A stretch of 64,000 bases of DNA, from assembly GCA_047946875.1 (NCBI GenBank), contig CP181398.1:271154-335153 (forward strand). The letters run 5' to 3'. The number at the start of each line of letters is the position of its first letter. Position 1 is the stretch's first letter. Source of the stretch: Candidatus Kerfeldbacteria bacterium (lineage in GTDB: Bacteria; Patescibacteriota; Patescibacteriia; UBA10025; JAHIVO01). A program made the position numbers and the translations under genes. Below the pieces are notes generated by a model. It saw only the letters and a list, made by a program, of their open reading frames with translations, was not told the origin of the DNA and searched no databases. Positions 7,089 to 59,932 of this stretch are shown one piece after another.

Positions 7089-8447
7089 ATGACGGAGAAA
7101 TTTAAAACTCCTGATCCAACCATGCCCACTTCCGCAGACGTAGTTGTTATCGGAGGCGGTACTATTGGTGCTCTGGTTACTTTACAATTGCAGGAAGCGG
7201 GCTTGAAGACAGTCTGTGTGGAAGCGCACAGTACTAATTTTGGCAGTTCTAGTCGTTCAGCTGCCGCAGCTCGTCAACAGTTTGGTATGGAAGCCAATAT
7301 TACGATGCAACTCTATTCTGTGGATTTTTTCGCAAATTGGAAAAAAACTTTAGGTGGCACAACGCCACCAATGCATCAAGTTGGCTATCATTTCATGTTC
7401 GACAACAATTTTACAGACAATGGCAGTACTCGGGTTGACTCTAAGGCTGTCGTAGCTGCGAAACTCAAACGAGTTGAAAAGCAACGAGCTCTCGGACTCA
7501 ATGATGTAGAATTATTGATGCCGGATGAAGTAGCCGAACGTTTTCCCTACGTTGATACTTCTGAGTTGGCCTGCTCAACTTTTTGCCAGACAGATGGATA
7601 TTGTTATCCTAATGTCATCACCAATGATGGTTTCGATCGAGCCAAATCTTTAGGAGCAACTTTGCTTCAAAATACTTTGGTTTCAGGATTTAAAACTGAC
7701 AGTAATGGTAACATTACGGCAGTTGTAACCAACAAAGGTGAGATACCTTGTCAGTATGTAGTTAATGCTGCTGGTGTCTGGGCATCACGAGTTGGTGATA
7801 TGGTAGGTACAGAATTACCAATCAGTCCAGTACGACGCTATCTGTATTTTATGGGTCCTAATCTTGGTCAACTTGATTATGATTCATTTGCTAAGAAGAA
7901 TAATCTGCCTATGCCTATGTCAGATATGCCCTTCACGGTCACTCCTAATGGTGCTTACTGTCGTGCTGATGGTAAACAATTCATGCTCGGTTGGGACCGT
8001 CGTCCATCGGAAGATGTAATATATGATTTACCTAGTTTGGTAGATCATGACGCTTCTATTCAAGCACAGGATATCATTCAAGATGGTTTTAGAACCAATG
8101 ATGATCCGAGCTATGCTGAAGAGATGTGTATGGAAGTATCTGAACGACTTCCGTTCGTATTGGATCATTGTGGCTTTGCTTCTGCCACTTCCGGTTTCTA
8201 TGGAATTACGGCTGATCATAGTCCAATTATCAGTTTTGATTCTAATGCTAAGAATTTGATTCATTGCACCGGTTTTTCTGGTCATGGAATCATGCAAGGT
8301 CCAGCGGCTGGTAAGTTAGTGATAGATCTTATCACTGGTAATACTAGTCCTATTGTTGATCCTTTTGTTTATAGCTTAGGTGGTCTTTTGAGTCATCTTA
8401 ATGGTGATACAAAAAATGCTCGTCCGGCTGAGCACATGGTTATCTAA
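7089..8447 (+). CDS. FAD-dependent oxidoreductase, DAO family (sarcosine-oxidase-beta / proline-dehydrogenase-beta-like)
   Basis: VVVIGGGTIG dinucleotide motif. About 47% GC against a roughly 30% background. SD GGAGG upstream. Confidence 0.75.
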   Translation: MTEKFKTPDPTMPTSADVVVIGGGTIGALVTLQLQEAGLKTVCVEAHSTNFGSSSRSAAAARQQFGMEANITMQLYSVDFFANWKKTLGGTTPPMHQVGYHFMFDNNFTDNGSTRVDSKAVVAAKLKRVEKQRALGLNDVELLMPDEVAERFPYVDTSELACSTFCQTDGYCYPNVITNDGFDRAKSLGATLLQNTLVSGFKTDSNGNITAVVTNKGEIPCQYVVNAAGVWASRVGDMVGTELPISPVRRYLYFMGPNLGQLDYDSFAKKNNLPMPMSDMPFTVTPNGAYCRADGKQFMLGWDRRPSEDVIYDLPSLVDHDASIQAQDIIQDGFRTNDDPSYAEEMCMEVSERLPFVLDHCGFASATSGFYGITADHSPIISFDSNAKNLIHCTGFSGHGIMQGPAAGKLVIDLITGNTSPIVDPFVYSLGGLLSHLNGDTKNARPAEHMVI

Positions 8448-36003: not shown

Positions 36004-36951
36004 TTACCTTTTGATATTAAATAAATTTATTAATACTTGTTCAGCAATGTTATTTATTGGGTTTTCAGCAGATCTGCTTTGCATATATATTCCGGGATTA
36101 TCATTTACTTCAGTTATTGCGCCACCAGTTTTTTTATATGATTTGGTAATATCAGTAGTCATAAAATCAAATCCAGCAAAAACCATATCTAGCTCCTTCA
36201 TAGCTTTTAGACAAGCTTTAATGTAATCAGGGTGAACTGTTTTGATATCAAGATTATAGGTAGTGCCTCCTAGGTGTGCATTAGCTCTGTCTCGTAAGTA
36301 AATCTTTTCATCGTCTTTTGGTATTGAATTAATAGTGAGTTGTTGAGCTTTCAATTTATGAAGGACTTCTTGTCCAATAGTAATTGGGTGGGGTAATTTT
36401 CTATTTTTTAATTTAATTAATTCTTTGATTGTTTTTTTACCATCACCAGTTATTTTAGCTGGGAAGCGTTTAGTGACTGCTAGGACTTTATTTTTGCATA
36501 TTAATATCCTATGATCGTAACCAGAATAAAACTTCTCTATTAAAATAAATTTATAATATTTCTTTATCTTTTTAATAGCATTTTTAAGTTGAGATACATT
36601 TTGTATATCAGCAATAATACCCTCACCACCATAACCTTTTATTGGTTTAATGATAACTGGAAATCCTATTTTTTTTGCGAATTTGATGATATCTGAGTTT
36701 GGTTCGTTATAAAAACCTTTATGTGGGAAAACTGGAACATCTCTACTTTTTAAAAATAAATTAGTATGATTTTTTCGATCGGTCATTGCATGAGCTATAG
36801 AATCATTGACATCAGGAGTTGCTTGGTAAAATCTTATTGATTTACTTTTATAAAATATTTCATAGATATAAGAATTGGTAATAGTATACTTTAAGTCAAG
36901 TTTTTTGGCTGCTTTTGTATATATTTTTAGATAATCTCTTGTATAATCCAT
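36004..36951 (-). CDS. ATP-grasp ligase resembling the cyanophycin synthetase N-terminal (G) domain, paralog B
   Basis: RANAHLGGTT...VHP...GFD...TDIT...ITEVNDNPG matches the CphA ATP-grasp signature. No Mur-ligase domain. Confidence 0.55.
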   Translation of the reverse strand: MDYTRDYLKIYTKAAKKLDLKYTITNSYIYEIFYKSKSIRFYQATPDVNDSIAHAMTDRKNHTNLFLKSRDVPVFPHKGFYNEPNSDIIKFAKKIGFPVIIKPIKGYGGEGIIADIQNVSQLKNAIKKIKKYYKFILIEKFYSGYDHRILICKNKVLAVTKRFPAKITGDGKKTIKELIKLKNRKLPHPITIGQEVLHKLKAQQLTINSIPKDDEKIYLRDRANAHLGGTTYNLDIKTVHPDYIKACLKAMKELDMVFAGFDFMTTDITKSYKKTGGAITEVNDNPGIYMQSRSAENPINNIAEQVLINLFNIKR

Positions 36952-36953
36952 TA

Positions 36954-37892
36954 TTATATTTTTAAAAGATTAATAAGAACTTGTTCACCAATATCTTTAA
37001 TTGGATTGACTGTCGCTGTCATATGTATATCGGTAGCGGGATTATCGTTAATCTCGGTAACACCTGCACCTGTTTTTTTGTACGATTTTGTAATATCTGT
37101 GGTCATAAGATCTAATCCTGCTAATTTGAGATTAAGAAGTTTAACTGCTTTCATACTTATTTTAATATTATCTGGATGTACTGTTTTAATATTAACGTTT
37201 TCGGTTGTGCCACCAAGGGCTGCATTTGCTCTAAATCTTAAATATAAGGTTTTATTGAGTGGCAAAATAGATTTCAAAGTTAATTTTTTTGATTTCAGCA
37301 TATCTTTTACTTCTTGATCTATTTTTACCGGTTTTGGGAGATGTTTATTTTTTTTATTGATAAGTTTCAAGATTGAGTTGACACCATCACCTATGATGGA
37401 GGCTGGAAATCTTTTGGTGACTGCTAATAATTTATCGTTAACTATTAAAATACGATAATCCCAGCCAGGATAGTATTTCTCAATAATAATATTTTTATCA
37501 ATTTTTGTTGCAGTAATTATCGATTTTTTTAATTCCGATTGATTAATAATATTTACAGTTATGCCCATACCACAAAGACCAGCCACAGGCTTTACAACTA
37601 CTGGAAATTTTAGTGATTTTGTGTATTTTAATATTTCAGAAAATTTAGCGTTGTTAAATTTTTTTTGTTCAAAAACCGGGACGTTATTTTTTTTTAAGAA
37701 TTCATTTGTCATGTTTTTGTATTTTGTGATAATGTGTGCAACTGCGTTATTTTTGCTACACATTGCAAAATAAAATCTGACTTTATCTTTTTTATAAAAT
37801 ATATCAATCAAAAAAGCATTATGAAGTTTTATTTTTAATCCGAGTTTTCTAGCTGCCTGGGAATAGAATTTAGCGTAAAAGTAAGGTTTCAT
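36954..37892 (-). CDS. ATP-grasp ligase resembling the cyanophycin synthetase N-terminal (G) domain, paralog A
   Basis: RANAALGGTT...VHP...GLD...TDIT...VTEINDNPA. About 45% identical to paralog B by eye. Confidence 0.55.
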   Translation of the reverse strand: MKPYFYAKFYSQAARKLGLKIKLHNAFLIDIFYKKDKVRFYFAMCSKNNAVAHIITKYKNMTNEFLKKNNVPVFEQKKFNNAKFSEILKYTKSLKFPVVVKPVAGLCGMGITVNIINQSELKKSIITATKIDKNIIIEKYYPGWDYRILIVNDKLLAVTKRFPASIIGDGVNSILKLINKKNKHLPKPVKIDQEVKDMLKSKKLTLKSILPLNKTLYLRFRANAALGGTTENVNIKTVHPDNIKISMKAVKLLNLKLAGLDLMTTDITKSYKKTGAGVTEINDNPATDIHMTATVNPIKDIGEQVLINLLKI

Positions 37893-38737
37893 TATTTGTT
37901 TTGTTTATTGTATAGGTATTCAATCATTTGTGCCGCTATGTCAGTTCCTGTAATTTGTTGGGCTCGAGGAAAGAAGCAAGGATAATTTACTTCTGTGAGA
38001 TAATGTTTATTATTATGTATTAGGATATCTACTCCGCCAAATTCTAGATTTAATAATTGAACTGCTTTAATAGCGGTATCTTTAATATCTTTTGGAAATT
38101 TCTTAGTAATAACTTTGGGATTTCCTACATTTGATCTAAAGTCATCTTTTGGTGCTTGATATTCTATACTATCTATCACTTTATCTCCTAAGACCACAAG
38201 TCTGGCAGAAGAAGTAACAGGAATATATTCTCTGATCATTACTTTAGCCTCATCATTTCTAAGATAGTCTAGAACAGAGAATAGAGATTCTATTGAATCA
38301 ACTTTCATAACTCCGACTCCATGGCTTTTACCAGATACTTTAACTATATAAGGAGGACCATTAAGGTCTTGAATTTGGGATTCAATATTTTTTTTGTCCT
38401 TTGTAATGATAAATATAGTTTTTGGGGTAGGTACTCCATTCTCTATATAAATTTTTTCATCAGCTGCAGCATTCATACCACCATGGAGAGCTTTACGATA
38501 ATCCGTATAAAATGTAGCTACTTTTTCATTGAGTAATTCTATTTCTATTTGTCTGGCATAGGGGGTAGTATTAGCTCGATAAAGCGCATCTTTTGTGGTT
38601 GGTTTTTTAAAATTTTTTTCAGGGTAAGTTCTAATATCTACATAAATTAGATCCACCTCGTTATTTTTTTTACAGGCATTTACAAAAGTATCATTGATTT
38701 GTGAATTGGATTCACTGGATATTAAATAAAATTTCAT
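37892..38737 (-). CDS. RimK-family ATP-grasp (alpha-L-glutamate ligase-like)
   Basis: DFRSN, GVDIL and TGTDIAAQMI motifs as in RimK. Confidence 0.6.
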   Translation of the reverse strand: MKFYLISSESNSQINDTFVNACKKNNEVDLIYVDIRTYPEKNFKKPTTKDALYRANTTPYARQIEIELLNEKVATFYTDYRKALHGGMNAAADEKIYIENGVPTPKTIFIITKDKKNIESQIQDLNGPPYIVKVSGKSHGVGVMKVDSIESLFSVLDYLRNDEAKVMIREYIPVTSSARLVVLGDKVIDSIEYQAPKDDFRSNVGNPKVITKKFPKDIKDTAIKAVQLLNLEFGGVDILIHNNKHYLTEVNYPCFFPRAQQITGTDIAAQMIEYLYNKQNK

Positions 38738-51382: not shown

Positions 51383-53752
51383 TTGAAAAAAAATATGGAT
51401 TTTGCTGATAAAAAAGCGCACTTAAAATTTAATAAAAGATCAAAAAATGGACATAGACAAAGCGGTCCTAATTTTGGTATACCACATGCTAATATAATTG
51501 ATTTGAAGAAGATTCATAATGAAAAGAAAGAAAAGGAAAAACAGATAATTAAAGATAATGAAAATATTATAACTAAAATTAGTAATATTAAATGGCCCAA
51601 GTTAAGTATCCCAAAAAAGATTCATCACAAAACAGCCTTGGAAAAAATACTGGTATCAAAAATTAATCAAGATGCACCAACTGAGATAAGTATAAATAAA
51701 AAAAAGGAGAATCAGAAAACAGCAAAACAAATTCCAACTAAACCAGATATTAATCAAATTAAATTAGACGTTAAACAGTTCTCACTATCCTCTGGTTGGT
51801 ATAAGCGTTTAGCTGTGTTTTCTTTAGTTTCACTAGCAATAATTGCACCAATATACTTAATGAATTTTTACGAAAATGCTAAGCAGACGCAAGGTCAAGT
51901 CTTGGGAATATCTTCAGAAGCATATGATTTTTTGAAAGAAGCGGGGTCTTTTGCTACATCTTCAGAATTCAGTGAGGCAGGAGAATCATTTGGTAAAGCT
52001 GCTGAAAGTTTTATAGAGGCGCAAGATCAATTAGAATCAGCTGGAGGAGTGGTATTGTCAATCGCAAATATAGTACCTAATAAGGCTAAAAGTGCAGAAT
52101 ATCTTTTATCAGCTGGGGCGCATATGAGTAAGGCAGGAGTTCTTGTTTCTGAGATTATACCTGAATTAGAAAATTTTGATGTTAATCCATTAGATAATAA
52201 GCAAGTTACGACACTAACTGATTTTTTATTTTTTATTAAAACAGAGTTACAACCAGTACAGACTGAGTTAGAATTAGCTATTAGTGATATTGATAATGTA
52301 AGAACTAAAGATTTGCCTGATGAGTATCAAGAAAGTATGGCACTAGTAAAAAATTCTTTACCAGCTTTGGAAAATGGTTTTGATAGGATATTTTCAGTTG
52401 CAGATGTATTACTAGTTATATTGGGGCATGAAGCTCCACAAAGATATTTACTTACTTTCCAAAATAATAGAGAATTACGACCGACTGGTGGGTTTATAGG
52501 ATCTATTGCTCTGATGGATATTTATAAAGGCAATATAGAAAATTTGGAAGTTCCTGGTGGCGGTGTTTATGATATTGCTGGACAATTAAATGAAAAAATT
52601 ATATCACCTAAACCTCTTTGGCTAGTAAATCCACATTGGAATATTCAAGATAGTAACTGGTTTGCTGATTTTCCAACTTCAGCAGAAAAAATAATTTGGT
52701 TTTATGAAAGAGCTGGCCGTACAACTGTAGATGGTGTGATGAGTATGACCCCTGAGGTGATATTAGATCTATTGAAGATTACAGGGCCTATCGTAATGGA
52801 TGATTATGGATTAACTATCGATCATAGTAATTTTATTAGAGAAACACAGTACCAAGCAGAGATTGCTTATGATAAAGAAGAAAATCAACCAAAAAAGATA
52901 ATTGGCGATATGTTACCAAAATTGTTTGATAAAATATTTTTAGTAGAATCTACTGACTTTTTGAAGATAGTTGATGTGTTCAATAAATCATTAGGAAACA
53001 AAGATATTTTATTTTATTTTACAGATGAAAACTTGGAGAATAAAATTAATGAACTTTCATGGGGAGGTAAGATTATAGATACAAATAAAGATTATTTGAT
53101 GGTAGTTAGTTCTAATATTGCTGGAGGTAAAACTGATCACGTTGTTGATCAACTAGTTTCTCACGAAGTAAATATCCAATCAGATGGATCAATGATTAAT
53201 ACAGTAAAAATTTCAAGGACACATCAAGGTAACAGTTTAGATATATGGGAAGGGGAAGACAATGTATCATACTTACGAATTTATGTACCTAAGGGAAGTG
53301 AGTTAGTGTCTATAGAGGGTTATGATAATATACCAAGTTTTAGATATTTATTACCAGATCAAGATGCAACAACAGATGATTTCTTATCCAACATTGAACG
53401 AAATTCAATTATTGACGAATCGACAGGCACAAGAATAACTACAGAATTTAATAAGACGGTTTTTGGTAATTGGATAAGTATTTCTCCTGGAGAAACACAG
53501 GAGTTAATAATCTCATACAAATTACCATTTAATCTGGATTTTGGTGGATTATTTGATAAAACAGATTCCTATAGATTGTATGTACAAAAACAACCAGGTT
53601 TAATAAATAATTTCTTTACTACCAAGGTTAATTGGTCTGATGATATTAGCTTGATTTGGAATCAGGCTGGGTTTACGATTGATGAACATTCAGCTGAATA
53701 TGTAACAGATCTTGATAGTGATAAAATATTAGGGGTGATAATTAAGAAGTAA
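51383..53752 (+). CDS. Large membrane-anchored protein (possibly DUF4012-like)
   Basis: 789-aa ORF with a basic N-terminus and one TM helix near residue 140. The domain guess is from memory only. Confidence 0.35.
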   Translation: MKKNMDFADKKAHLKFNKRSKNGHRQSGPNFGIPHANIIDLKKIHNEKKEKEKQIIKDNENIITKISNIKWPKLSIPKKIHHKTALEKILVSKINQDAPTEISINKKKENQKTAKQIPTKPDINQIKLDVKQFSLSSGWYKRLAVFSLVSLAIIAPIYLMNFYENAKQTQGQVLGISSEAYDFLKEAGSFATSSEFSEAGESFGKAAESFIEAQDQLESAGGVVLSIANIVPNKAKSAEYLLSAGAHMSKAGVLVSEIIPELENFDVNPLDNKQVTTLTDFLFFIKTELQPVQTELELAISDIDNVRTKDLPDEYQESMALVKNSLPALENGFDRIFSVADVLLVILGHEAPQRYLLTFQNNRELRPTGGFIGSIALMDIYKGNIENLEVPGGGVYDIAGQLNEKIISPKPLWLVNPHWNIQDSNWFADFPTSAEKIIWFYERAGRTTVDGVMSMTPEVILDLLKITGPIVMDDYGLTIDHSNFIRETQYQAEIAYDKEENQPKKIIGDMLPKLFDKIFLVESTDFLKIVDVFNKSLGNKDILFYFTDENLENKINELSWGGKIIDTNKDYLMVVSSNIAGGKTDHVVDQLVSHEVNIQSDGSMINTVKISRTHQGNSLDIWEGEDNVSYLRIYVPKGSELVSIEGYDNIPSFRYLLPDQDATTDDFLSNIERNSIIDESTGTRITTEFNKTVFGNWISISPGETQELIISYKLPFNLDFGGLFDKTDSYRLYVQKQPGLINNFFTTKVNWSDDISLIWNQAGFTIDEHSAEYVTDLDSDKILGVIIKK

Positions 53753-53843
53753 AATGTAGTATATTTATTGGGGTTAATTTAATATGAGTAATAATTTTTT
53801 AGCTAATTTTAGCTAATTTTTTTATTATTGTGGATATTACCCC

Positions 53844-53872
53844 TTGACAGGGAATAGTAGTAGGTATATGAT
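53844..53872 (+). promoter_or_regulatory. Near-consensus sigma70 promoter
   Basis: TTGACA-17 nt-TATGAT. Confidence 0.45.
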
Positions 53873-54028
53873 TATAAGTTATATTGTTTTTTACAACTAA
53901 ATATGTAAATAACTCTTTGAGGAGAGAGTTATCAATTAAGCATTATAATAGTGCTTATGATATAAACTATTTGAATTGAATTCTATTTATTAACAATAGA
54001 ACCAATAACTAAATTAATGTAATCAAAT

Positions 54029-54067
54029 GGCGAACTCTCCTAAAAGAAAGTTCGCTTCTTGTTTTTT
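54029..54067 (+). terminator. Rho-independent terminator
   Basis: GGCGAACT...AGTTCGC followed by TTCTTGTTTTTT. Confidence 0.55.
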
Positions 54068-54218
54068 AGGGAATGAAAAGGGGGGCTAGAAAAATGATAT
54101 CAATATGGATTAGTTTTTCTCTCGGTGTAAACTGAGAATTCACTAATCTTGGTATCTGGTGTATGCGTCAAACTTACGTGCGACTAAGCTATACCACTAG
54201 CAACCTTCTCATTCTTTG
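54068..54218 (+). repeat. Repeat family A, copy 1 (variant closing helix)
   Basis: Near-identical to copies 2-4 across about 140 nt. Ends TAGGGAATGA / TCATTCTTTG. Confidence 0.8.
54094..54135 (+). CDS. Leader uORF MISIWISFSLGVN (copy 1)
   Basis: AAAAGGGGGG SD 8 nt upstream of ATG. Conserved across 4 repeat copies. Confidence 0.35.
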   Translation: MISIWISFSLGVN

Positions 54219-54229
54219 AAAAAAAATTT

Positions 54230-54327
54230 CGAGTGGGTATAAGGTCACCTATTAGCATTCTCACGGATGAGGTGTTACCGTCTTAAATAATATAGGCGTT
54301 GGGGTGTGCAGATCCCCCTTCCACTCG
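54230..54327 (+). other. Structured 98-nt element (7-bp closing helix CGAGTGG/CCACTCG with internal hairpins)
   Basis: Long-range perfect complementarity plus GGGGtgtgcagatCCCC and CACCT...AGGTG hairpins. Lies between repeat A1 and cargo gene 1. Confidence 0.3.
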
Positions 54328-54372
54328 ACAAAATTATTCGTTAAAAAACGAGTATTGCTATTAGCAATTTGT

Positions 54373-54407
54373 GGGCGAGGTTACGGAAGCTTCGCCACCT
54401 TTTTCCA
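54373..54407 (+). terminator. Hairpin followed by T-run
   Basis: GGGCGAGG...CTTCGCC then CCTTTTTCC. Confidence 0.4.
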
Positions 54408-54479
54408 GCGGGCATCTGCTATTGTGGATGTTTGCTGAAAAAAGGGATAAAAAAGTACAAAAGGCAAAAGGAGAGCAGT

Positions 54480-54725
54480 ATGTCTGGCATATTTCTTAAA
54501 AACGTATTTGATCGCATAACAGCTTTAATGAGTAAGGCGATCGTATACAACTTCTCAGCAGATCAAAATCAACGTGATATAAGCGATCGTATAGGTACTC
54601 TAAACGATCAAATCATCAAATATGATAGTGATCTCAGCTGGGGGAATATTGAGAAGTCTGAATCTACTGAAGCAGATTTTCTTAAAGAGTTCGAAGAAAT
54701 TGAAGCAATTATTGTTACTTTCTAA
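54480..54725 (+). CDS. Cargo gene 1: small acidic protein (81 aa; start moved to ATG 54480)
   Basis: AAGGAGAG SD 6 nt upstream. The track ORF starts further upstream at 54369 with no RBS. Confidence 0.45.
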   Translation: MSGIFLKNVFDRITALMSKAIVYNFSADQNQRDISDRIGTLNDQIIKYDSDLSWGNIEKSESTEADFLKEFEEIEAIIVTF

Positions 54726-54808
54726 ATTCTTTTCCTGGGGAATGGATTTAATTCATTCCCCACACATTTCTAGAGAATCAAGTAATTGGTTAACTGGAAA
54801 TATGCTAA

Positions 54809-54999
54809 AGTTCTTTACATCAATATTTCACAGTTAGAAAAGGGGGGCTAGAAAAATGATATCAATATGGATTAGTTTTTCTCTCGGTGCAAACTGAGAA
54901 TTCACTAATCTTGGTATCTGGTGTATGCGTCAAACTTACGTGCGACTAAGCTATACCACCCGCCCAAGGCGGATAAACTAGCAATCTTCTCTAACTGTG
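54809..54999 (+). repeat. Repeat family A, copy 2 (19-nt hairpin insertion)
   Basis: CACAGTTAGA...TCTAACTGTG closing inverted repeat. Insertion CCGCCCAAGGCGG at 54959-54977. Confidence 0.8.
54856..54897 (+). CDS. Leader uORF MISIWISFSLGAN (copy 2)
   Basis: Same SD and spacing as copy 1. Confidence 0.35.
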   Translation: MISIWISFSLGAN

Positions 55000-55030
55000 A
55001 AAATATTGCTATAAGTTTTAAAAATGGAGG

Positions 55031-55273
55031 ATGAAGATGAATTCCATATGGGAAGTAGTAAAAGGCTTCATTAGTTCAATAATAGTACCTTACATTGGTA
55101 TTTGGACAATTGAAGGGACTCTGGAAGGTACAATATGTATTTATAAGTTACCGATTTATATGGTAACTGGAACTGGAGTTTGTATACTAATTCTCTTCAT
55201 TTGTTTCATAATTCATGTTGTTATTGAAGAGATTTGTGAGAAAATTAACAATAAACTTCATCAGTCCATATAG
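55031..55273 (+). CDS. Cargo gene 2: small two-TM membrane protein (start possibly 55037)
   Basis: GGAGG SD. ATG at 55037 has better spacing. Confidence 0.45.
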   Translation: MKMNSIWEVVKGFISSIIVPYIGIWTIEGTLEGTICIYKLPIYMVTGTGVCILILFICFIIHVVIEEICEKINNKLHQSI

Positions 55274-55294
55274 CAGATGTTAAATGTTCTTTAC

Positions 55295-55328
55295 GGAGAA
55301 AGCCTAAAAAACTTTCTCCACTTTTTCC
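55295..55328 (+). terminator. Rho-independent terminator
   Basis: GGAGAAAG-cctaaaaaa-CTTTCTCC followed by ACTTTTTCC. Confidence 0.5.
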
Positions 55329-55375
55329 AAGAAATAATGCAAATTGTTTGCTGAAAAAAGGGAATGTTCTTTATA

Positions 55376-55536
55376 TCAATATTTCATGGTTAGAAAAGGG
55401 GGGCTAGAAAAATGATATCAATATGGATTAGTTTTTCTCTCGGTGCAAACTGAGAATTCACTAATCTTGGTATCTGGTGTATGCGTCAAACTTACGTGCG
55501 ACTAAGCTATACCACTAGCAACCTTCTCTAACTGTG
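55376..55536 (+). repeat. Repeat family A, copy 3
   Basis: CATGGTTAGA...TCTAACTGTG. One extra C at 55441 frameshifts the uORF tail. Confidence 0.8.
55411..55464 (+). CDS. Leader uORF MISIWISFSLRCKLRIH (copy 3, frameshifted C-terminus)
   Basis: Same SD and start. A 1-nt insertion changes the last residues. Confidence 0.3.
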
Positions 55537-55574
55537 AAAAAACAATAAACATCATATAAACCTGGAGTAATGAA

Positions 55575-55955
55575 ATGATTACTGATCACGTAGAGTGGGC
55601 TCGTAAGCTGACGGAAGAGATGACTCGTGAACTCGAGGAATTACTTGCCCGTCACGGCTATCGGTTTATCGAAAGGGAAGATCTTGTTCCAGGCAGAAGG
55701 TTTCAAATGGTTGAAATATGGCCATTTGTACCGATAGAAAACCCTCGGTTCGTAGGCACTCAGGTAATGATCGATGATCCTGGTATTCGTACTTGTGATC
55801 ACCCTGATCTTCCGGATGAGTATGTATATTATCATTCGGTGGGATGGAAGAGACAGTGCTTCGTTCCGTTGGAAATGTTTCTTAATCGGCAAGCCGGACC
55901 GCATGACAATAGACAATACGCCTACGTTGTCCCAAATTTCGGAGGTTGTATGTGA
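55575..55955 (+). CDS. Cargo gene 3: hypothetical protein, about 47% GC (foreign composition)
   Basis: Compositional outlier. Its last 14 nt are part of repeat B. Confidence 0.5.
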   Translation: MITDHVEWARKLTEEMTRELEELLARHGYRFIEREDLVPGRRFQMVEIWPFVPIENPRFVGTQVMIDDPGIRTCDHPDLPDEYVYYHSVGWKRQCFVPLEMFLNRQAGPHDNRQYAYVVPNFGGCM

Positions 55956-56092
55956 CATTTATTCCAAAGTCCCAGAACCAAAACTGGTAGGATAGTTACC
56001 TGAAACAGAATAACTCGGGAAGAGATCTTTTCTTCCCGTACTTTTCCAGAATATCATGAGAGTGGTGTTTTGAAAAAGTGATTGAACATTAC
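55942..56092 (+). repeat. Repeat family B, copy 1
   Basis: About 150 nt, roughly 90% identical to copy 2. Contains perfect hairpin CGGGAAGA-gatctt-TCTTCCCG (56016-56038). Confidence 0.75.
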
Positions 56093-56112
56093 ATATAAAG
56101 AAGGGAATAATA

Positions 56113-56259
56113 ATGAATATTACTATAATATCATTAGCGCTTCTGGCAATAGTCTGTGGATGTAGATTGTATTTTTCTAAAAACGGAAAAATTCAGTTTT
56201 TAGCAGCAATCGAAGGGATAGCAATAATTATCGTAATAGTTACCACACAGATTAATTAG
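56113..56259 (+). CDS. Cargo gene 4: 48-aa small membrane protein
   Basis: AAGGGAAT SD-like sequence upstream. Two hydrophobic segments. Not in the ORF track because it is under 60 aa. Confidence 0.4.
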   Translation: MNITIISLALLAIVCGCRLYFSKNGKIQFLAAIEGIAIIIVIVTTQIN

Positions 56260-56334
56260 TCAGAGTATTATTGTTCCATAGGAAGGAAGTACAAAAATGG
56301 ATAAGATTCAAATTGAATTGGAAATTATCTAAAT

Positions 56335-56368
56335 GGGCGAGGTATTGAGAATTTCGCCCCTTTTTTTC
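56335..56368 (+). terminator. Rho-independent terminator
   Basis: GGGCGAGG...TTTCGCCCC followed by TTTTTTT. Confidence 0.55.
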
Positions 56369-56410
56369 AGCGGGCATTTGCTATTGTGAATGTTTGCTGA
56401 AAAAAAGGAA

Positions 56411-56582
56411 AGTTCTTTACATCAATATTTCACAGTTAGAAAAGGGGGGCTAGAAAAATGATATCAATATGGATTAGTTTTTCTCTCGGTGCAAACTGAG
56501 AATTCACTAATCTTGGTATCTGGTGTATGCGTCAAACTTACGTGCGACTAAGCTATACCACTAGCAACCTTCTCTAACTGTG
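56411..56582 (+). repeat. Repeat family A, copy 4
   Basis: CACAGTTAGA...TCTAACTGTG. Confidence 0.8.
56458..56499 (+). CDS. Leader uORF MISIWISFSLGAN (copy 4)
   Basis: Same SD and spacing. Confidence 0.35.
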   Translation: MISIWISFSLGAN

Positions 56583-56608
56583 AAATAAAATATAGAATAA
56601 GGAGAATT

Positions 56609-57127
56609 GTGATGAAACTTACACATTTCATTAACTGCAAATTCGATTGGTATTACCGCCTGACATTATGTCTCTTGGTATATTTCTTTACCAATTCATA
56701 TTACGTAAGTGGTCAAATCACTTATTGGAACAGTATTGGTGCGTTTATAACTGGATCGTTACTTATCAATATCATTTATGTGTTGATAACAATGATTGCA
56801 GTATATCCTTTGCACTTATTGTATTTGTTCGTTGCATCTAAGATTGCAGTCAAGAAAAAAAGACCAAAAAAAGATGAATATTGTGTCAGTTGTAGGTATT
56901 TATCGGTAACAACATTCATCGTTGTATTAACTTATGCAACTTATAAGTTTACGATTGGTGAAGCTGTTTTATGGGAAGCTGTTGTTGGGGGATTGTTGGG
57001 TGCTATCGTTGTGAATTTGATGATCCGGTTTATAGGTTGTCTAACTTTTTGGCCACTACATTCATTTTTCAATTTTGTATGGTACAAATTGTTCAAAAGA
57101 AATGTCGTACAAGCATCCACATGTTAG
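56609..57127 (+). CDS. Cargo gene 5: four-TM membrane protein
   Basis: AAGGAGAA SD. GTG/ATG start. Confidence 0.5.
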   Translation: MMKLTHFINCKFDWYYRLTLCLLVYFFTNSYYVSGQITYWNSIGAFITGSLLINIIYVLITMIAVYPLHLLYLFVASKIAVKKKRPKKDEYCVSCRYLSVTTFIVVLTYATYKFTIGEAVLWEAVVGGLLGAIVVNLMIRFIGCLTFWPLHSFFNFVWYKLFKRNVVQASTC

Positions 57128-57189
57128 TATTTTTTCACAAGTGAGATTAGACCTAGTGTCTTGATCTTGAAAAGTTCCTCTTTATTCTA

Positions 57190-57340
57190 GAGGTTATATG
57201 TGACATTTGTCCCAAGGTTCCAGAACCTATAACTGGTAGGGTAGTTACCTGAAACAGAATAACTCGGGAAGAGATCTTTTCTTCCCGTACTTTTCCAGAA
57301 TATCATGAGAGTGGTATTTTGAAAAAGTGATTGAACATTA
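57190..57340 (+). repeat. Repeat family B, copy 2
   Basis: Near-identical to copy 1, including the CGGGAAGA...TCTTCCCG hairpin. Confidence 0.75.
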
Positions 57341-57365
57341 TAACTAAATATAGATCGGAGAAAAT

Positions 57366-57521
57366 ATGTACGAATATGTAGGTATTGCAATTGGTATCAT
57401 GTTACTTGCTTATGTTGCCTATAAATATTTGGTTGCATCTGTAGTATCATGGTTTGTCTGTATGGCAATCGATAAACTGTTTGAAACCCATAATATAAGT
57501 ATGGGAAGAATAGGAAGGTAA
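57366..57521 (+). CDS. Cargo gene 6: 51-aa small membrane protein
   Basis: GGAG SD upstream. Hydrophobic core. Stop overlaps the next gene's start region. Confidence 0.4.
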   Translation: MYEYVGIAIGIMLLAYVAYKYLVASVVSWFVCMAIDKLFETHNISMGRIGR

Positions 57522-57522
57522 A

Positions 57523-57762
57523 ATGTACTATCGTCATGATGAAAGAATGATGAAAATGAATATGGCTTTAGTCTTAGTCCTAGTGCCAATTCTATTCGTA
57601 GTCACTTTCGGAATTTCTGCATTAGGATGGGGTAGCCTCGACTCTTTTATGAGAGGTTTTATGGGTTATACCACTCTTATATTTGGAGGTGTATGGTTGG
57701 CTGTCCTTGAAGGAGAAACAAAAGATTTCCGATCCAGGGTCAAGGCAATGATATGGTCATAA
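57523..57762 (+). CDS. Cargo gene 7: 79-aa two-TM membrane protein
   Basis: GGAAGG SD. Translationally coupled to gene 6. Confidence 0.45.
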   Translation: MYYRHDERMMKMNMALVLVLVPILFVVTFGISALGWGSLDSFMRGFMGYTTLIFGGVWLAVLEGETKDFRSRVKAMIWS

Positions 57763-58303
57763 ATTGACCAAGACTATAATTATATTGGGGCAGCTCTGTA
57801 TTAATACAATACATCTGCCCATTCTTTTCCAGAACATCTAGTTCCTTCTCCCATCCAGGCTCAGGATATTGTCCAAAGGACTCAGGTGTTATGAAAAAGG
57901 GGGGTGAATATTTAAACTAAAATATATATAATTAGTTTATCCTCACAATTTTTAAAATGCATGTTTGACAATTTATTATATTAAGCGTATTTTTTAACTG
58001 CTAATCAATTATTAGTTGATTGGCACAAGAAAGCTGTCGGTTATGAAATGCTGGAGATCTAACTTATTAAGTAGAAAAATCTCTCTCCTCATGTTCTAAT
58101 TTAATTATTAGAATATTTCTACTCAAAAGTTGGTATAATCCTTCAACTCATGTCGACAGCTTTTTTGATACATAGGATTTGATTCTTAGCTACATTCAGG
58201 ACACTATTATTAGTATTAGTATTTTGCGACACCTTATTGTATTTTTATCATTTTAATCATCGGTGTTGATTTATATGCTATTTTTTGTTATAATTTTTTT
58301 ATT

Positions 58304-59932
58304 ATGATGTTTAGAATTTGGCGCAAACTTACCACCACCTTAGCCGGTGGTGCGATTATTATAGCCACAGCTTCTGTTACCAGTCGTCTACTTGGTTTGA
58401 TCAGAGATAGGTTATTAGCAAATAAATTTGGTGCTGGTGATACCTTAGATATTTATTATGCTGCATTTAGAATACCTGATTTAGTATTTAACGTTTTAGT
58501 TTTGGGTGCATTATCGGCGGCTTTTATTCCAATATTTGTTGAATATTTACAAAAAGCTAAAGAAGATCCAAGTAAAAAGAACGAAGTTTGGCATCTAGCT
58601 AATTCACTATTAAATATATTATTAGCTGGTTTATTGGTTTTTGGTTTTCTTCTATTTATCTTTGCACCGCAGATTGTTCCATTGATTGCGCCTGGTTTTG
58701 ATCTGGATAAACAAGCTATTGTAGTGAACATGACCAGGATTATGTTAATATCAATTATATTTTTTGGTATTAGTAATGTTATTACAGGCATGTTGAATTC
58801 TATGAAAAAATATGCCAACTTTGCTTTAGCGCCAGTAATGTATAATATTGGAATTATAATTGGAATTATTTATTTAACGCCGATTTATGGTATTTACGGT
58901 TTAGCTTATGGTGTAGTACTTGGTTCATTTTTACATTTAGTTATTCAAATACCTGGAGCGCTAAAAATTGGATATAGGTATCAACCGATTTTTGATTATA
59001 CGCACAAAGGAGTTAGAGCTATTGGTAAATTAATGTTACCAAGGACTTTTGGACTTGCTGTTACGCAAATAGATCAATTGGTTAGTGTGATAATTGGTTC
59101 AACTTTAGCTACTGGTTCGGTGGCTGTTTTTACTTTAGCCAATAATCTTCAGAATTTTCCAATTGGCGTTTTTGGAGTATCGATGGCTGTAGCATCATTC
59201 CCATTTTTTAGTGAAGCGTTTGCTCAAAAAAATGTAGAATTATTTGTTTTACATTTTTCAAAAAGTTTTCGTAGGATACTATTTCTAGTCATTCCTATTT
59301 CAGTTTTAATATTTTTACTTAGAGCTCAGTTGGTGCGTGTTATTCTTGGTTCAGGAAATTTTGATTGGCAAGATACATATTATACAGCCCAAACTCTTGG
59401 GTTTTTTGCATTGTCATTATTTGCTCAGAGTACTATCCCGCTTTTAGCTAGATCATTCTACGCTTGGCAGGATACTAAAACCCCGGTAAAAATTGCCATT
59501 GTTACTGTGATTGTAAATATTTTCGGAGCATTAGTTTTAAGTAATTATTTAGGAGTAATTGGGTTGGCAATTGCATTCTCAATTTCTAGCGTTGTTCAAA
59601 TGATATTATTATATATATTTTTAAGAAAAAAAATGGGTAATCTTGATGATAAAACTTTGGTTATTTCGTTGAGTAAAATAGTATTAATAACTGCAATGAT
59701 GGGGGCCGTTGTTCATGCTTCAAAATATGTTCTAGCACTTGGAGTAAATATGGACACTTTTTTAGGAATATTTATTCAAGGTGTAGGAGCAGGTATTATT
59801 GGTATCGTTTTTTATCTAATACTAGCCTTTATGTTTAGATGTGACGAAATAACAATTATTACTAAACTGTTCATTAAAGCAAAAAATCAACTATTTAATG
59901 GTAAGAATAAAGAAAATATAAATGCAGAATAA
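58304..59932 (+). CDS. murJ: Lipid II flippase MurJ
   Basis: Full-length MurJ/MviN similarity, about 14 TM helices. Confidence 0.85.
   Translation: MMFRIWRKLTTTLAGGAIIIATASVTSRLLGLIRDRLLANKFGAGDTLDIYYAAFRIPDLVFNVLVLGALSAAFIPIFVEYLQKAKEDPSKKNEVWHLANSLLNILLAGLLVFGFLLFIFAPQIVPLIAPGFDLDKQAIVVNMTRIMLISIIFFGISNVITGMLNSMKKYANFALAPVMYNIGIIIGIIYLTPIYGIYGLAYGVVLGSFLHLVIQIPGALKIGYRYQPIFDYTHKGVRAIGKLMLPRTFGLAVTQIDQLVSVIIGSTLATGSVAVFTLANNLQNFPIGVFGVSMAVASFPFFSEAFAQKNVELFVLHFSKSFRRILFLVIPISVLIFLLRAQLVRVILGSGNFDWQDTYYTAQTLGFFALSLFAQSTIPLLARSFYAWQDTKTPVKIAIVTVIVNIFGALVLSNYLGVIGLAIAFSISSVVQMILLYIFLRKKMGNLDDKTLVISLSKIVLITAMMGAVVHASKYVLALGVNMDTFLGIFIQGVGAGIIGIVFYLILAFMFRCDEITIITKLFIKAKNQLFNGKNKENINAE

Follow-up and report, generated by a model that had tools for sequence, protein, structure and literature searches.

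The stretch of DNA analysed here, called the window throughout, comprises 64,000 nucleotides (nt) of a Candidatus Kerfeldbacteria genome (contig CP181398.1, positions 271,154 to 335,153 of the forward strand), and the object of interest within it is a small open reading frame (ORF) at 55575-55955, rich in guanine plus cytosine (GC) and encoding 126 amino acids (aa), which we term the cargo ORF or cargo gene. It lies in an intergenic island between the genes for a DUF4012 protein and MurJ, amid copies of two recurrent elements, a 162-nt candidate RNA with a three-way junction (A) and a hairpin (B). On balance, we favor the view that the cargo ORF is a genuine member of a protein family restricted to the candidate phyla radiation (CPR), that a hypervariable array, punctuated by hairpins and RNA elements, captured it as a unit lacking its own promoter, and that its GC excess is intrinsic to its family. 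The features needed to follow the argument are these (L018, L019 and L020 are loci from related genomes, introduced below):

51383-53752, DUF4012 gene, the left flank of the island
53753..58303, plus strand, hypervariable intergenic island between the DUF4012 gene and murJ
53844..53928, plus strand, region with promoter and 5'-untranslated region (5'-UTR) motif, common to L018, L019 and L020
53844-53872, plus strand, conserved island promoter TTGACA-17-TATGAT
53913-53928, plus strand, 5'-UTR motif CTCTTTGAGGAGAGAG, which contains TGAGGAGAGAG
55295..55362, plus strand, terminator-like GC hairpin (55295-55319) followed by a B hairpin (55319-55362), closing the preceding 80-aa cassette
55564..55567, plus strand, GGAG Shine-Dalgarno sequence of the cargo gene, 7 nt 5' of the ATG
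55575..55955, plus strand, cargo ORF, 126 aa, intact from ATG start to TGA stop
55942..56099, plus strand, B-prime repeat, copy 1, starting within the last 14 nt of the cargo ORF, with a terminator hairpin at 56016-56038 and a B hairpin at 56038-56081
57190..57348, plus strand, B-prime repeat, copy 2
58081..58091, minus strand, inverted TGAGGAGAGAG (11-mer) at the island's right edge, shortly before the murJ promoter region
58304-59932, murJ, the right flank of the island

The cargo ORF is present as described in an earlier sequence-only reading of this DNA, with an identical translation. It is a genuine protein-coding gene in the plus frame, since it is intact, is preceded by a Shine-Dalgarno sequence, has 19 homologues with conserved motifs, yields a confident AlphaFold2 model and shows no folding signal in its mRNA. 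The earlier reading recognized no domain in its product, and Pfam, PHROGs, PADLOC and NCBIfam are indeed all blank; however, this picture was incomplete, as a homologous family exists. A word-indexed homology search returned only the protein itself, annotated as hypothetical protein ACNFW9_01635 (XOU94746.1) of a Candidatus Kerfeldbacteria metagenome-assembled genome with a contig of 1.31 Mb, and an exhaustive HMMER search of 1.84 billion representatives recovered 19 relatives of 99-212 aa (E 8.7e-10 to 6.5e-4; 33-43% identity over the matched stretches). Four further matches in genomes of Patescibacteria, Saccharibacteria and Zambryskibacteria, one of them on contig L002, a locus already known, came from a tblastn search for related loci that used a seven-sequence subset of the alignment. 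In total, the family has about 25 distant homologues with 27-43% identity, the best match to the cargo protein being 38% identical. All named hosts are Patescibacteria (Saccharibacteria, Zambryskibacteria and 'Patescibacteria group'), and neither tblastn searches of phage and plasmid collections nor a pattern scan of IMG/VR detected a family member. The family thus defined is a rare, not previously annotated group of small cytoplasmic proteins, found so far only in the Patescibacteria (CPR).

The family alignment is typified by the motif YR..REDLVPG..MV...I.LDD...VYYHC..P.W.GQCFVP..FL, in which D36, D67 and C95 are invariant and R30, G40, M45, I64, V84, Y86, H87, C88, a proline, W91, F96, V97 and F102 nearly so. 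The window copy has a serine (S88) in place of the nearly invariant C88 and is missing the nearly invariant proline. The homologues terminate 2-6 residues past a conserved RY.V. Supplying the family alignment raised the predicted local distance difference test score (pLDDT) of the AlphaFold2 model from 40 with a single sequence to 88.3, with a predicted template modeling score (pTM) of 0.79. The model consists of a helix at residues 2-26, followed by six strands and two short helices, and the predicted fold is a long N-terminal helix joined to a small SH3/Tudor-like β-barrel. A profile search of PDB sequences gave no match for the family, and a Pfam run on all 20 family members returned nothing relevant, including no match to DUF1653 (PF07866) at E <= 1.

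We recovered the genomic context of 11 other family loci, and the neighbors differ every time: they include TGT and Germane, FUR and rubrerythrin, ICMT and pterin dehydratase, WecG, GT4 and MreB, HAD and a tyrosine recombinase, and Ala racemase and DsbD. These contexts are non-syntenic, and native syntenic homologues in related low-GC genomes, which would have told against the acquisition proposed in the earlier reading, did not emerge. At three of the loci (L001, L005 and L006) the family gene is oriented against both its neighbors, and in the latter two a TTGACA-17/18-TATAAT promoter could be read by eye upstream of it. Direct reading of the sequence also revealed a hairpin with a T-run 3' of most of the family copies examined. 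No A or B elements are linked to the homologue loci. One homologue (P0003) is on a 15-kb contig (JGI 3300075153) whose roughly 25 ORFs are small, run in one direction and have almost no Pfam matches; this contig looks phage-like, and no other observation hints at a mobile carrier of the family.

To place the cargo gene in its chromosomal setting, seven related metagenomic loci with usable flanks were obtained with MurJ as probe. The gene order GT-GT-DUF4012-[gap]-MurJ-LepA is kept across these relatives. The gap is 4.6 kb long in the window and spans 8.4, 4.0 and 3.9 kb in L018, L019 and L020, respectively, while the more distant L022, L023 and L024 have a gap of just 0.5-0.7 kb. The three loci with large gaps come from the closest relatives, with MurJ proteins 73-76% identical to that of the window and a GC content of about 42-50%, which implies that base composition has shifted strongly and recently within the clade, the window standing at 32%. 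Searches by tblastn matched no ORF of the window's island to any of the relatives, whose own islands carry different small membrane and secreted proteins. Given this conserved flank order, the unrelated contents of the gap and the ordinary genes of the surrounding window, the cargo gene is seated in a true hot-spot of hypervariability within the core chromosome. As in integron cassette arrays, the island ORFs are co-oriented, short and unrelated between relatives at one locus. Most of the others in the window are small predicted membrane proteins without a family match, and all six of these other ORFs (54480-57762) are mildly atypical, with 0.27-0.36 GC at third codon positions (GC3; host 0.21) and values of 0.55-0.67 in an index resembling the codon adaptation index (CAI-like index).

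The left end of the island is conserved: the promoter, in the form CCCTTGACA-N17-TATGAT, occurs in all four genomes (the window, L018, L019 and L020). The TGAGGAGAGAG motif, which the 5'-UTR motif contains and which recurs inverted at the murJ side, was found at the following sites in relatives:

L018, 1791, 6281 and 9687
L019, 6124 and 9343
L020, 6231 and 9708
L023, 7676
L024, 9858

The island-less L023 and L024 thus carry the murJ-side inverted copy only. In L018 a second copy of the left type stands in mid-island, which suggests that this island is composite.

Element A occurs four times in the window, within one 2.5-kb stretch, and again in the closest relatives:

54062..54223, plus strand, A1, with an outer stem that differs in sequence from the other copies but keeps its pairing
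54824..55004, plus strand, A2, with a 19-nt extra hairpin at the junction
55380..55541, plus strand, A3, immediately 5' of the cargo gene
56426..56587, plus strand, A4, 5' of a gene for a 172-aa membrane protein
L019 6283-6443 and 6948-7108, plus strand, two A homologues
L018 8772-8930, plus strand, A homologue
L020 6366-6523, plus strand, A homologue

The cores of the window copies are identical except for one substitution each in A1 and A2, and the copies fold to -59 to -70 kcal/mol; the insertion in A2 (54957-54975) is a small GC hairpin (CCCGCC...GGCGG) at the three-way junction. A covariance model built from these four copies recovered full-length plus-strand homologues that blastn had missed, all of them inside islands: two in L019 (78.9 and 66.6 bits), one in L018 (70.8) and one in L020 (51.0). 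In the resulting alignment, which was fitted to the model structure, 94.9% of the cells are paired, as against about 40% with slid partners, and 33 of the 57 pairs are changed on both sides across species, while some G.U pairs are invariant. Likewise invariant are the junction nucleotides GAAAAGG-GGGG, CYGGU, C.AAAG and CUC. The conserved G.U pairs and the asymmetry between the strands point to A being an RNA on the plus strand, and the element, conserved across four Kerfeldbacteria-like genomes of 32-53% GC, looks like a new structured RNA family. A rebuilt model run over 332 kb found no further strong copies, exact 20-21-mers of A gave no match in genome, metagenome or viral contigs, and Rfam gave no match to A or B of the window or the relatives at gathering score or E <= 10.

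Copies of A usually lie upstream of small membrane-protein genes, 20-45 nt from the ORF, the soluble protein of the cargo gene behind A3 being an exception; A1 has no ORF directly behind it and is followed by a B hairpin. No terminator or helix sequestering a Shine-Dalgarno sequence is evident 3' of A. Two other interpretations of A were discarded. As a miniature inverted-repeat transposable element it would not account for the conserved unit, which extends asymmetrically to the left of the stem, or for homologues that covary like RNA. As a leader-peptide attenuator it would rely on the mini-ORF MISIWISFSLGAN(V), which follows a Shine-Dalgarno-like G-run in each window copy (54095-54136 in A1) and of which neither start codon nor frame is conserved in L018, L019 and L020. 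Between A1 and B1, the stretch 54225-54371 (145 nt) has no ORF, a somewhat raised GC content, a long-range stem CGAGTGGG...CCACTCG and a fold z of -2.5, and may represent the remains of a cassette or a further RNA.

Besides the B hairpins already listed, the following were detected:

54397..54446, plus strand, B1
56359..56408, plus strand, B4
57287..57330, plus strand, B5, outside the training set and found by the covariance model
57826-57897, a further B hairpin of the window, seen by eye
L018 1948-8743, B hairpins at 10 sites
L019 6677-9179, B hairpins
L020 6566-9583, B hairpins

B lies directly 3' of a GC-rich terminator-like hairpin, the U-tract of which doubles as the 5' arm of B. Each of 19 copies from the four genomes folds as a single long stem, and in 18 aligned copies the stem base UUYCAG/CUGRAA is invariant or nearly so, with an upper stem variable in sequence and length. 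Compensatory double changes were observed in 7 of the 13 consensus pairs. Run over 310 kb, the B covariance model gave matches with E < 0.01 only inside the four islands, and it scored the plus strand above the minus strand at all but one site. The hairpins are oriented with the genes. A and B are new conserved structured elements.

The earlier reading placed the cargo gene exactly between an A leader and a B element, and this arrangement is borne out: A3 ends 33 nt 5' of the ATG and the B-containing repeat begins at 55942, so that the last four codons and the stop (GGCM*) are repeat sequence. Between the two B-prime copies, identity is 87% in the first 38 nt and rises to 96% in the 118 nt that follow. 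A metagenomic contig of 1,589 bp (L003; JGI 3300083231) is otherwise identical to window positions 54871-57708 and lacks the 1.25 kb between the two copies, that is, a 48-aa gene, B4, A4 and the 172-aa gene, with the cargo gene joined to a 51-aa gene through the B-prime repeat (57190-57348). This contig represents either a population variant that arose by recombination between the repeats or an assembly collapse.

These observations can be brought together in a scheme in which the cargo gene was acquired by the island, an array of co-oriented small genes, mostly for membrane proteins, punctuated by terminator hairpins, B and A. We infer a capture, whatever its direction and timing, from the absence of the gene from the relatives' islands, from the loss of a promoter of its own, of the kind seen in two homologues, and from its 3' end, which runs into the B-prime repeat; the mildly atypical GC3 of the other island ORFs also counts toward it. 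There is no promoter-like site between 55300 and the ATG at 55575. Transcripts that reach the gene, which follows the A3 leader, would start at the island promoter or at an internal promoter that escaped detection, and ribosomes would initiate at the gene's own GGAG. This leaves standing the earlier claim of a horizontal acquisition into a variable slot, but neither its qualifier 'recent' (see below) nor the recombination machinery that the term 'cassette slot' would imply.

Such machinery is the essence of one alternative, improbable in our view and compatible with the favored scheme, in which the island is an integron-like platform: a recombinase encoded elsewhere would act on single-stranded sites formed by the B hairpins, and perhaps by the stems that close A, with the cargo gene as a mobilizable cassette. 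Its appeal lies in the layout: the ORFs are short, co-oriented and mostly promoterless; the hairpins between them are oriented and combine a stem base that is invariant with a variable top and, in many cases, a bulged C; the locus is fixed with contents unrelated between relatives; the B hairpins are confined to islands in the 310 kb searched; and the L003 variant is without exactly one repeat-to-repeat segment. Against this, the 18 aligned B hairpins lack the attC core RYYYAAC/GTTRRRY and have invariant U, C, A ... U, G, A instead, and on this core motif the identification of B with attC fails. No intI or other recombinase was found in the flanks or among the 30 window genes scanned. Furthermore, a 5' arm that is also a terminator U-tract fits a role at the RNA level just as well, and the B hairpins could equally be elements of RNA processing or stability; the conserved G.U pairs and strand asymmetry of A likewise indicate RNA. 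The L003 deletion, for its part, is explicable by ordinary homologous recombination between repeats that are 87-96% identical, or by assembly collapse. A bolder version, which we hold to be equally speculative, has the island as a previously undescribed cassette platform without an adjacent integrase, in which genes are swapped at the UUYCAG...CUGRAA hairpins and many cassettes are headed by an A element that controls or stabilizes their expression; the cargo family would then be a mobile CPR-restricted module that owes its synonymous GC to frequent recombination (for example, through GC-biased gene conversion) or to selection.

The favored scheme, in which the gene was captured and its GC excess belongs to the family, must also account for base composition. 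The sequence-only reading put the cargo ORF at about 47% GC, far above the background; the measured value is slightly lower, at 45.9%, and indeed far above the 32.0% of the window. Only 0.19% of 381-nt segments across the 64 kb reach at least this value, and a GC content of 42% or more is otherwise attained only by the RNase P RNA gene, a DAO-family gene and a spot adjoining tRNA-Asn. Among the ordinary genes of the window, the one for the DAO-family FAD oxidoreductase (7089-8447) has the highest GC (42%, with a GC3 of 0.30). Compared with 54 host genes, the cargo ORF is an outlier in GC (z = +4.3), in GC3 (0.41, against 0.209 +/- 0.038 with a host maximum of 0.305; z = +5.3) and in the CAI-like index (z = -4.6), which confirms that its codon usage differs from that of the host, and it is the strongest compositional outlier among the coding genes of the window. 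The rise in GC begins at its start codon and fades within the downstream repeat. Recoding the protein with host codon usage gives an expected 38.9% GC and a GC3 of 0.248, and about half of the excess is due to amino-acid composition and about half to synonymous sites (z = 4.9).

A high GC content was, however, found throughout the family: at each of the 12 loci examined, the family gene exceeds the remainder of its contig in GC, by 0.7-14.6 points (mean +10.4), and its GC follows that of the host (r = 0.84). A regression on the 11 other loci, with the window left out (slope 0.61, intercept 0.267), predicts 46.3% for a host of 32.0% GC, close to the 45.9% observed. Given the offset at every locus and this prediction, high GC is a trait of the whole protein family and no mark of recent arrival, and the window copy looks to be at the composition expected of a family member equilibrated in a 32% GC genome rather than a fresh import. 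This removes the support that high GC had been thought to give to a recent acquisition, and it does not show that the cargo gene is ancestral at the window locus.

A recent horizontal transfer from a GC-richer donor, with the donor's composition not yet ameliorated, accordingly strikes us as unlikely, a shade more so than the integron-like platform. It would explain why the gene stands out so strongly in composition from the other coding genes and why, sitting in a variable array, it is absent from the syntenic islands of relatives, and Kerfeldbacteria-like genomes of 42-50% GC exist as possible donors. However, the positive offset is common to all 12 family members examined, and the window value falls where the trend puts it at a host GC of 32%; by the same trend, a gene newly arrived from a host of 45% GC should have about 54% GC. 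Moreover, with a best homologue of 38% identity the donor is not identifiable, and the phage, plasmid and IMG/VR collections hold no match to the family. Finally, it is very improbable that the GC-rich stretch is a structured non-coding RNA, or that an antisense ORF of 105 aa (55641-55958) is the true gene: such a long ORF does exist opposite the cargo gene and RNA genes (RNase P RNA, tRNA) account for other GC-rich stretches of the window, but protein-level homologues keep their motifs although their DNA has fully diverged, the confident AlphaFold2 model and the Shine-Dalgarno sequence speak for a plus-frame protein, and mRNA folding no better than that of shuffled sequence (z = +0.46), together with the lack of an Rfam match to the cargo stretch, rules out the RNA, the antisense ORF being a by-product of high GC.

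Several points weigh against the picture of a captured family member with an inherited GC excess. The constant offset could also reflect repeated transfer from GC-richer lineages followed by partial amelioration, and the close relatives of this Kerfeldbacteria genome, at 42-50% GC, could be donors; in addition, the host GC of some homologues was taken from contigs of only 0.9-2.5 kb. The 30 other window genes scanned are ordinary metabolic and housekeeping genes, and neither these nor the neighbors of the island include a recombinase, transposase or integrase, so that the proposed acquisition has no visible mechanism. The S88 substitution and the missing proline suggest that the window copy may be functionally divergent or decaying. 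Fold searches with the model gave no significant match (PDB E >= 0.47), the best BFVD neighbors being DUF1653 phage proteins at E = 0.07 and template modeling (TM) scores of only 0.39-0.47, and on this slender footing our best guess, held with low confidence, is that the protein would be a small metal-stabilized binding or adaptor module. Lastly, the pair counts for A derive from an alignment fitted to the model structure.

Outside the island, the window contains three tandem ATP-grasp paralogues (RimK/D-Ala-D-Ala-ligase-like; 36004-38737, minus strand), which lie within its only mainly minus-strand stretch.

Taken alone, the cargo gene is of an ordinary kind, an accessory ORFan in a variable region, and the instructive twist is the GC offset of its whole family: a deviation of 4-5 standard deviations in GC and codon usage is an unreliable clock for horizontal transfer when the family shares the offset in every host. 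The locus also brings together objects absent from current databases, namely a family of small proteins so far seen only in Patescibacteria, which has a conserved Asp/His/Cys motif and a fold predicted with confidence, a conserved hairpin that recurs along a hypervariable array, and a covarying 162-nt RNA usually ahead of small membrane-protein genes. The accessory surface and membrane genes of episymbiotic bacteria probably mediate interactions with hosts or phages, and if the hairpins were truly recombination sites they would constitute a gene-capture system in such bacteria with reduced genomes.

The known system that the island most recalls is the integron cassette array, including clusters of attC sites lacking integron integrases (CALIN). 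Both have short, co-oriented, unrelated and promoterless ORFs at a fixed locus behind a single conserved upstream promoter, with hairpin sites that combine a conserved base and a variable center and contents that vary between related genomes. However, the stem base in the island is UUYCAG/CUGRAA and not RYYYAAC/GTTRRRY, no IntI or attI is detectable nearby, the hairpins overlap a terminator U-tract, and a 162-nt RNA is interleaved with the cassettes. As it fails on the attC core and on intI/attI, it should not be filed as an integron or CALIN; we found nothing relevant in the literature on integrons or attC in Patescibacteria or on Kerfeldbacteria.

With GC-atypical genes of genomic islands the cargo gene shares a GC, GC3 and codon adaptation 4-5 standard deviations off the host, a position in a variable region and an absence from relatives. 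It differs from them in that its deviation is common to all examined homologues and scales with host GC, which makes the deviation family-intrinsic and unable to date a transfer. At the protein level, the nearest BFVD neighbors of the model, the DUF1653 proteins, are soluble small-barrel proteins of about 100 aa, as is predicted for the cargo family, and have no known function; in contrast to these, proteins of the cargo family start with a long helix and carry a His/Cys motif, and none of the 20 members examined matches the Pfam model.

Element A, in turn, resembles leader RNAs and riboswitch candidates in being a multi-stem junction with invariant junction nucleotides and covariation, situated on the coding strand 20-45 nt 5' of ORFs that mostly encode small membrane proteins. 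It departs from these in being without an Rfam match or a recognizable expression platform, in that its first copy precedes a B hairpin, and in occurring as four near-identical copies within 2.5 kb.

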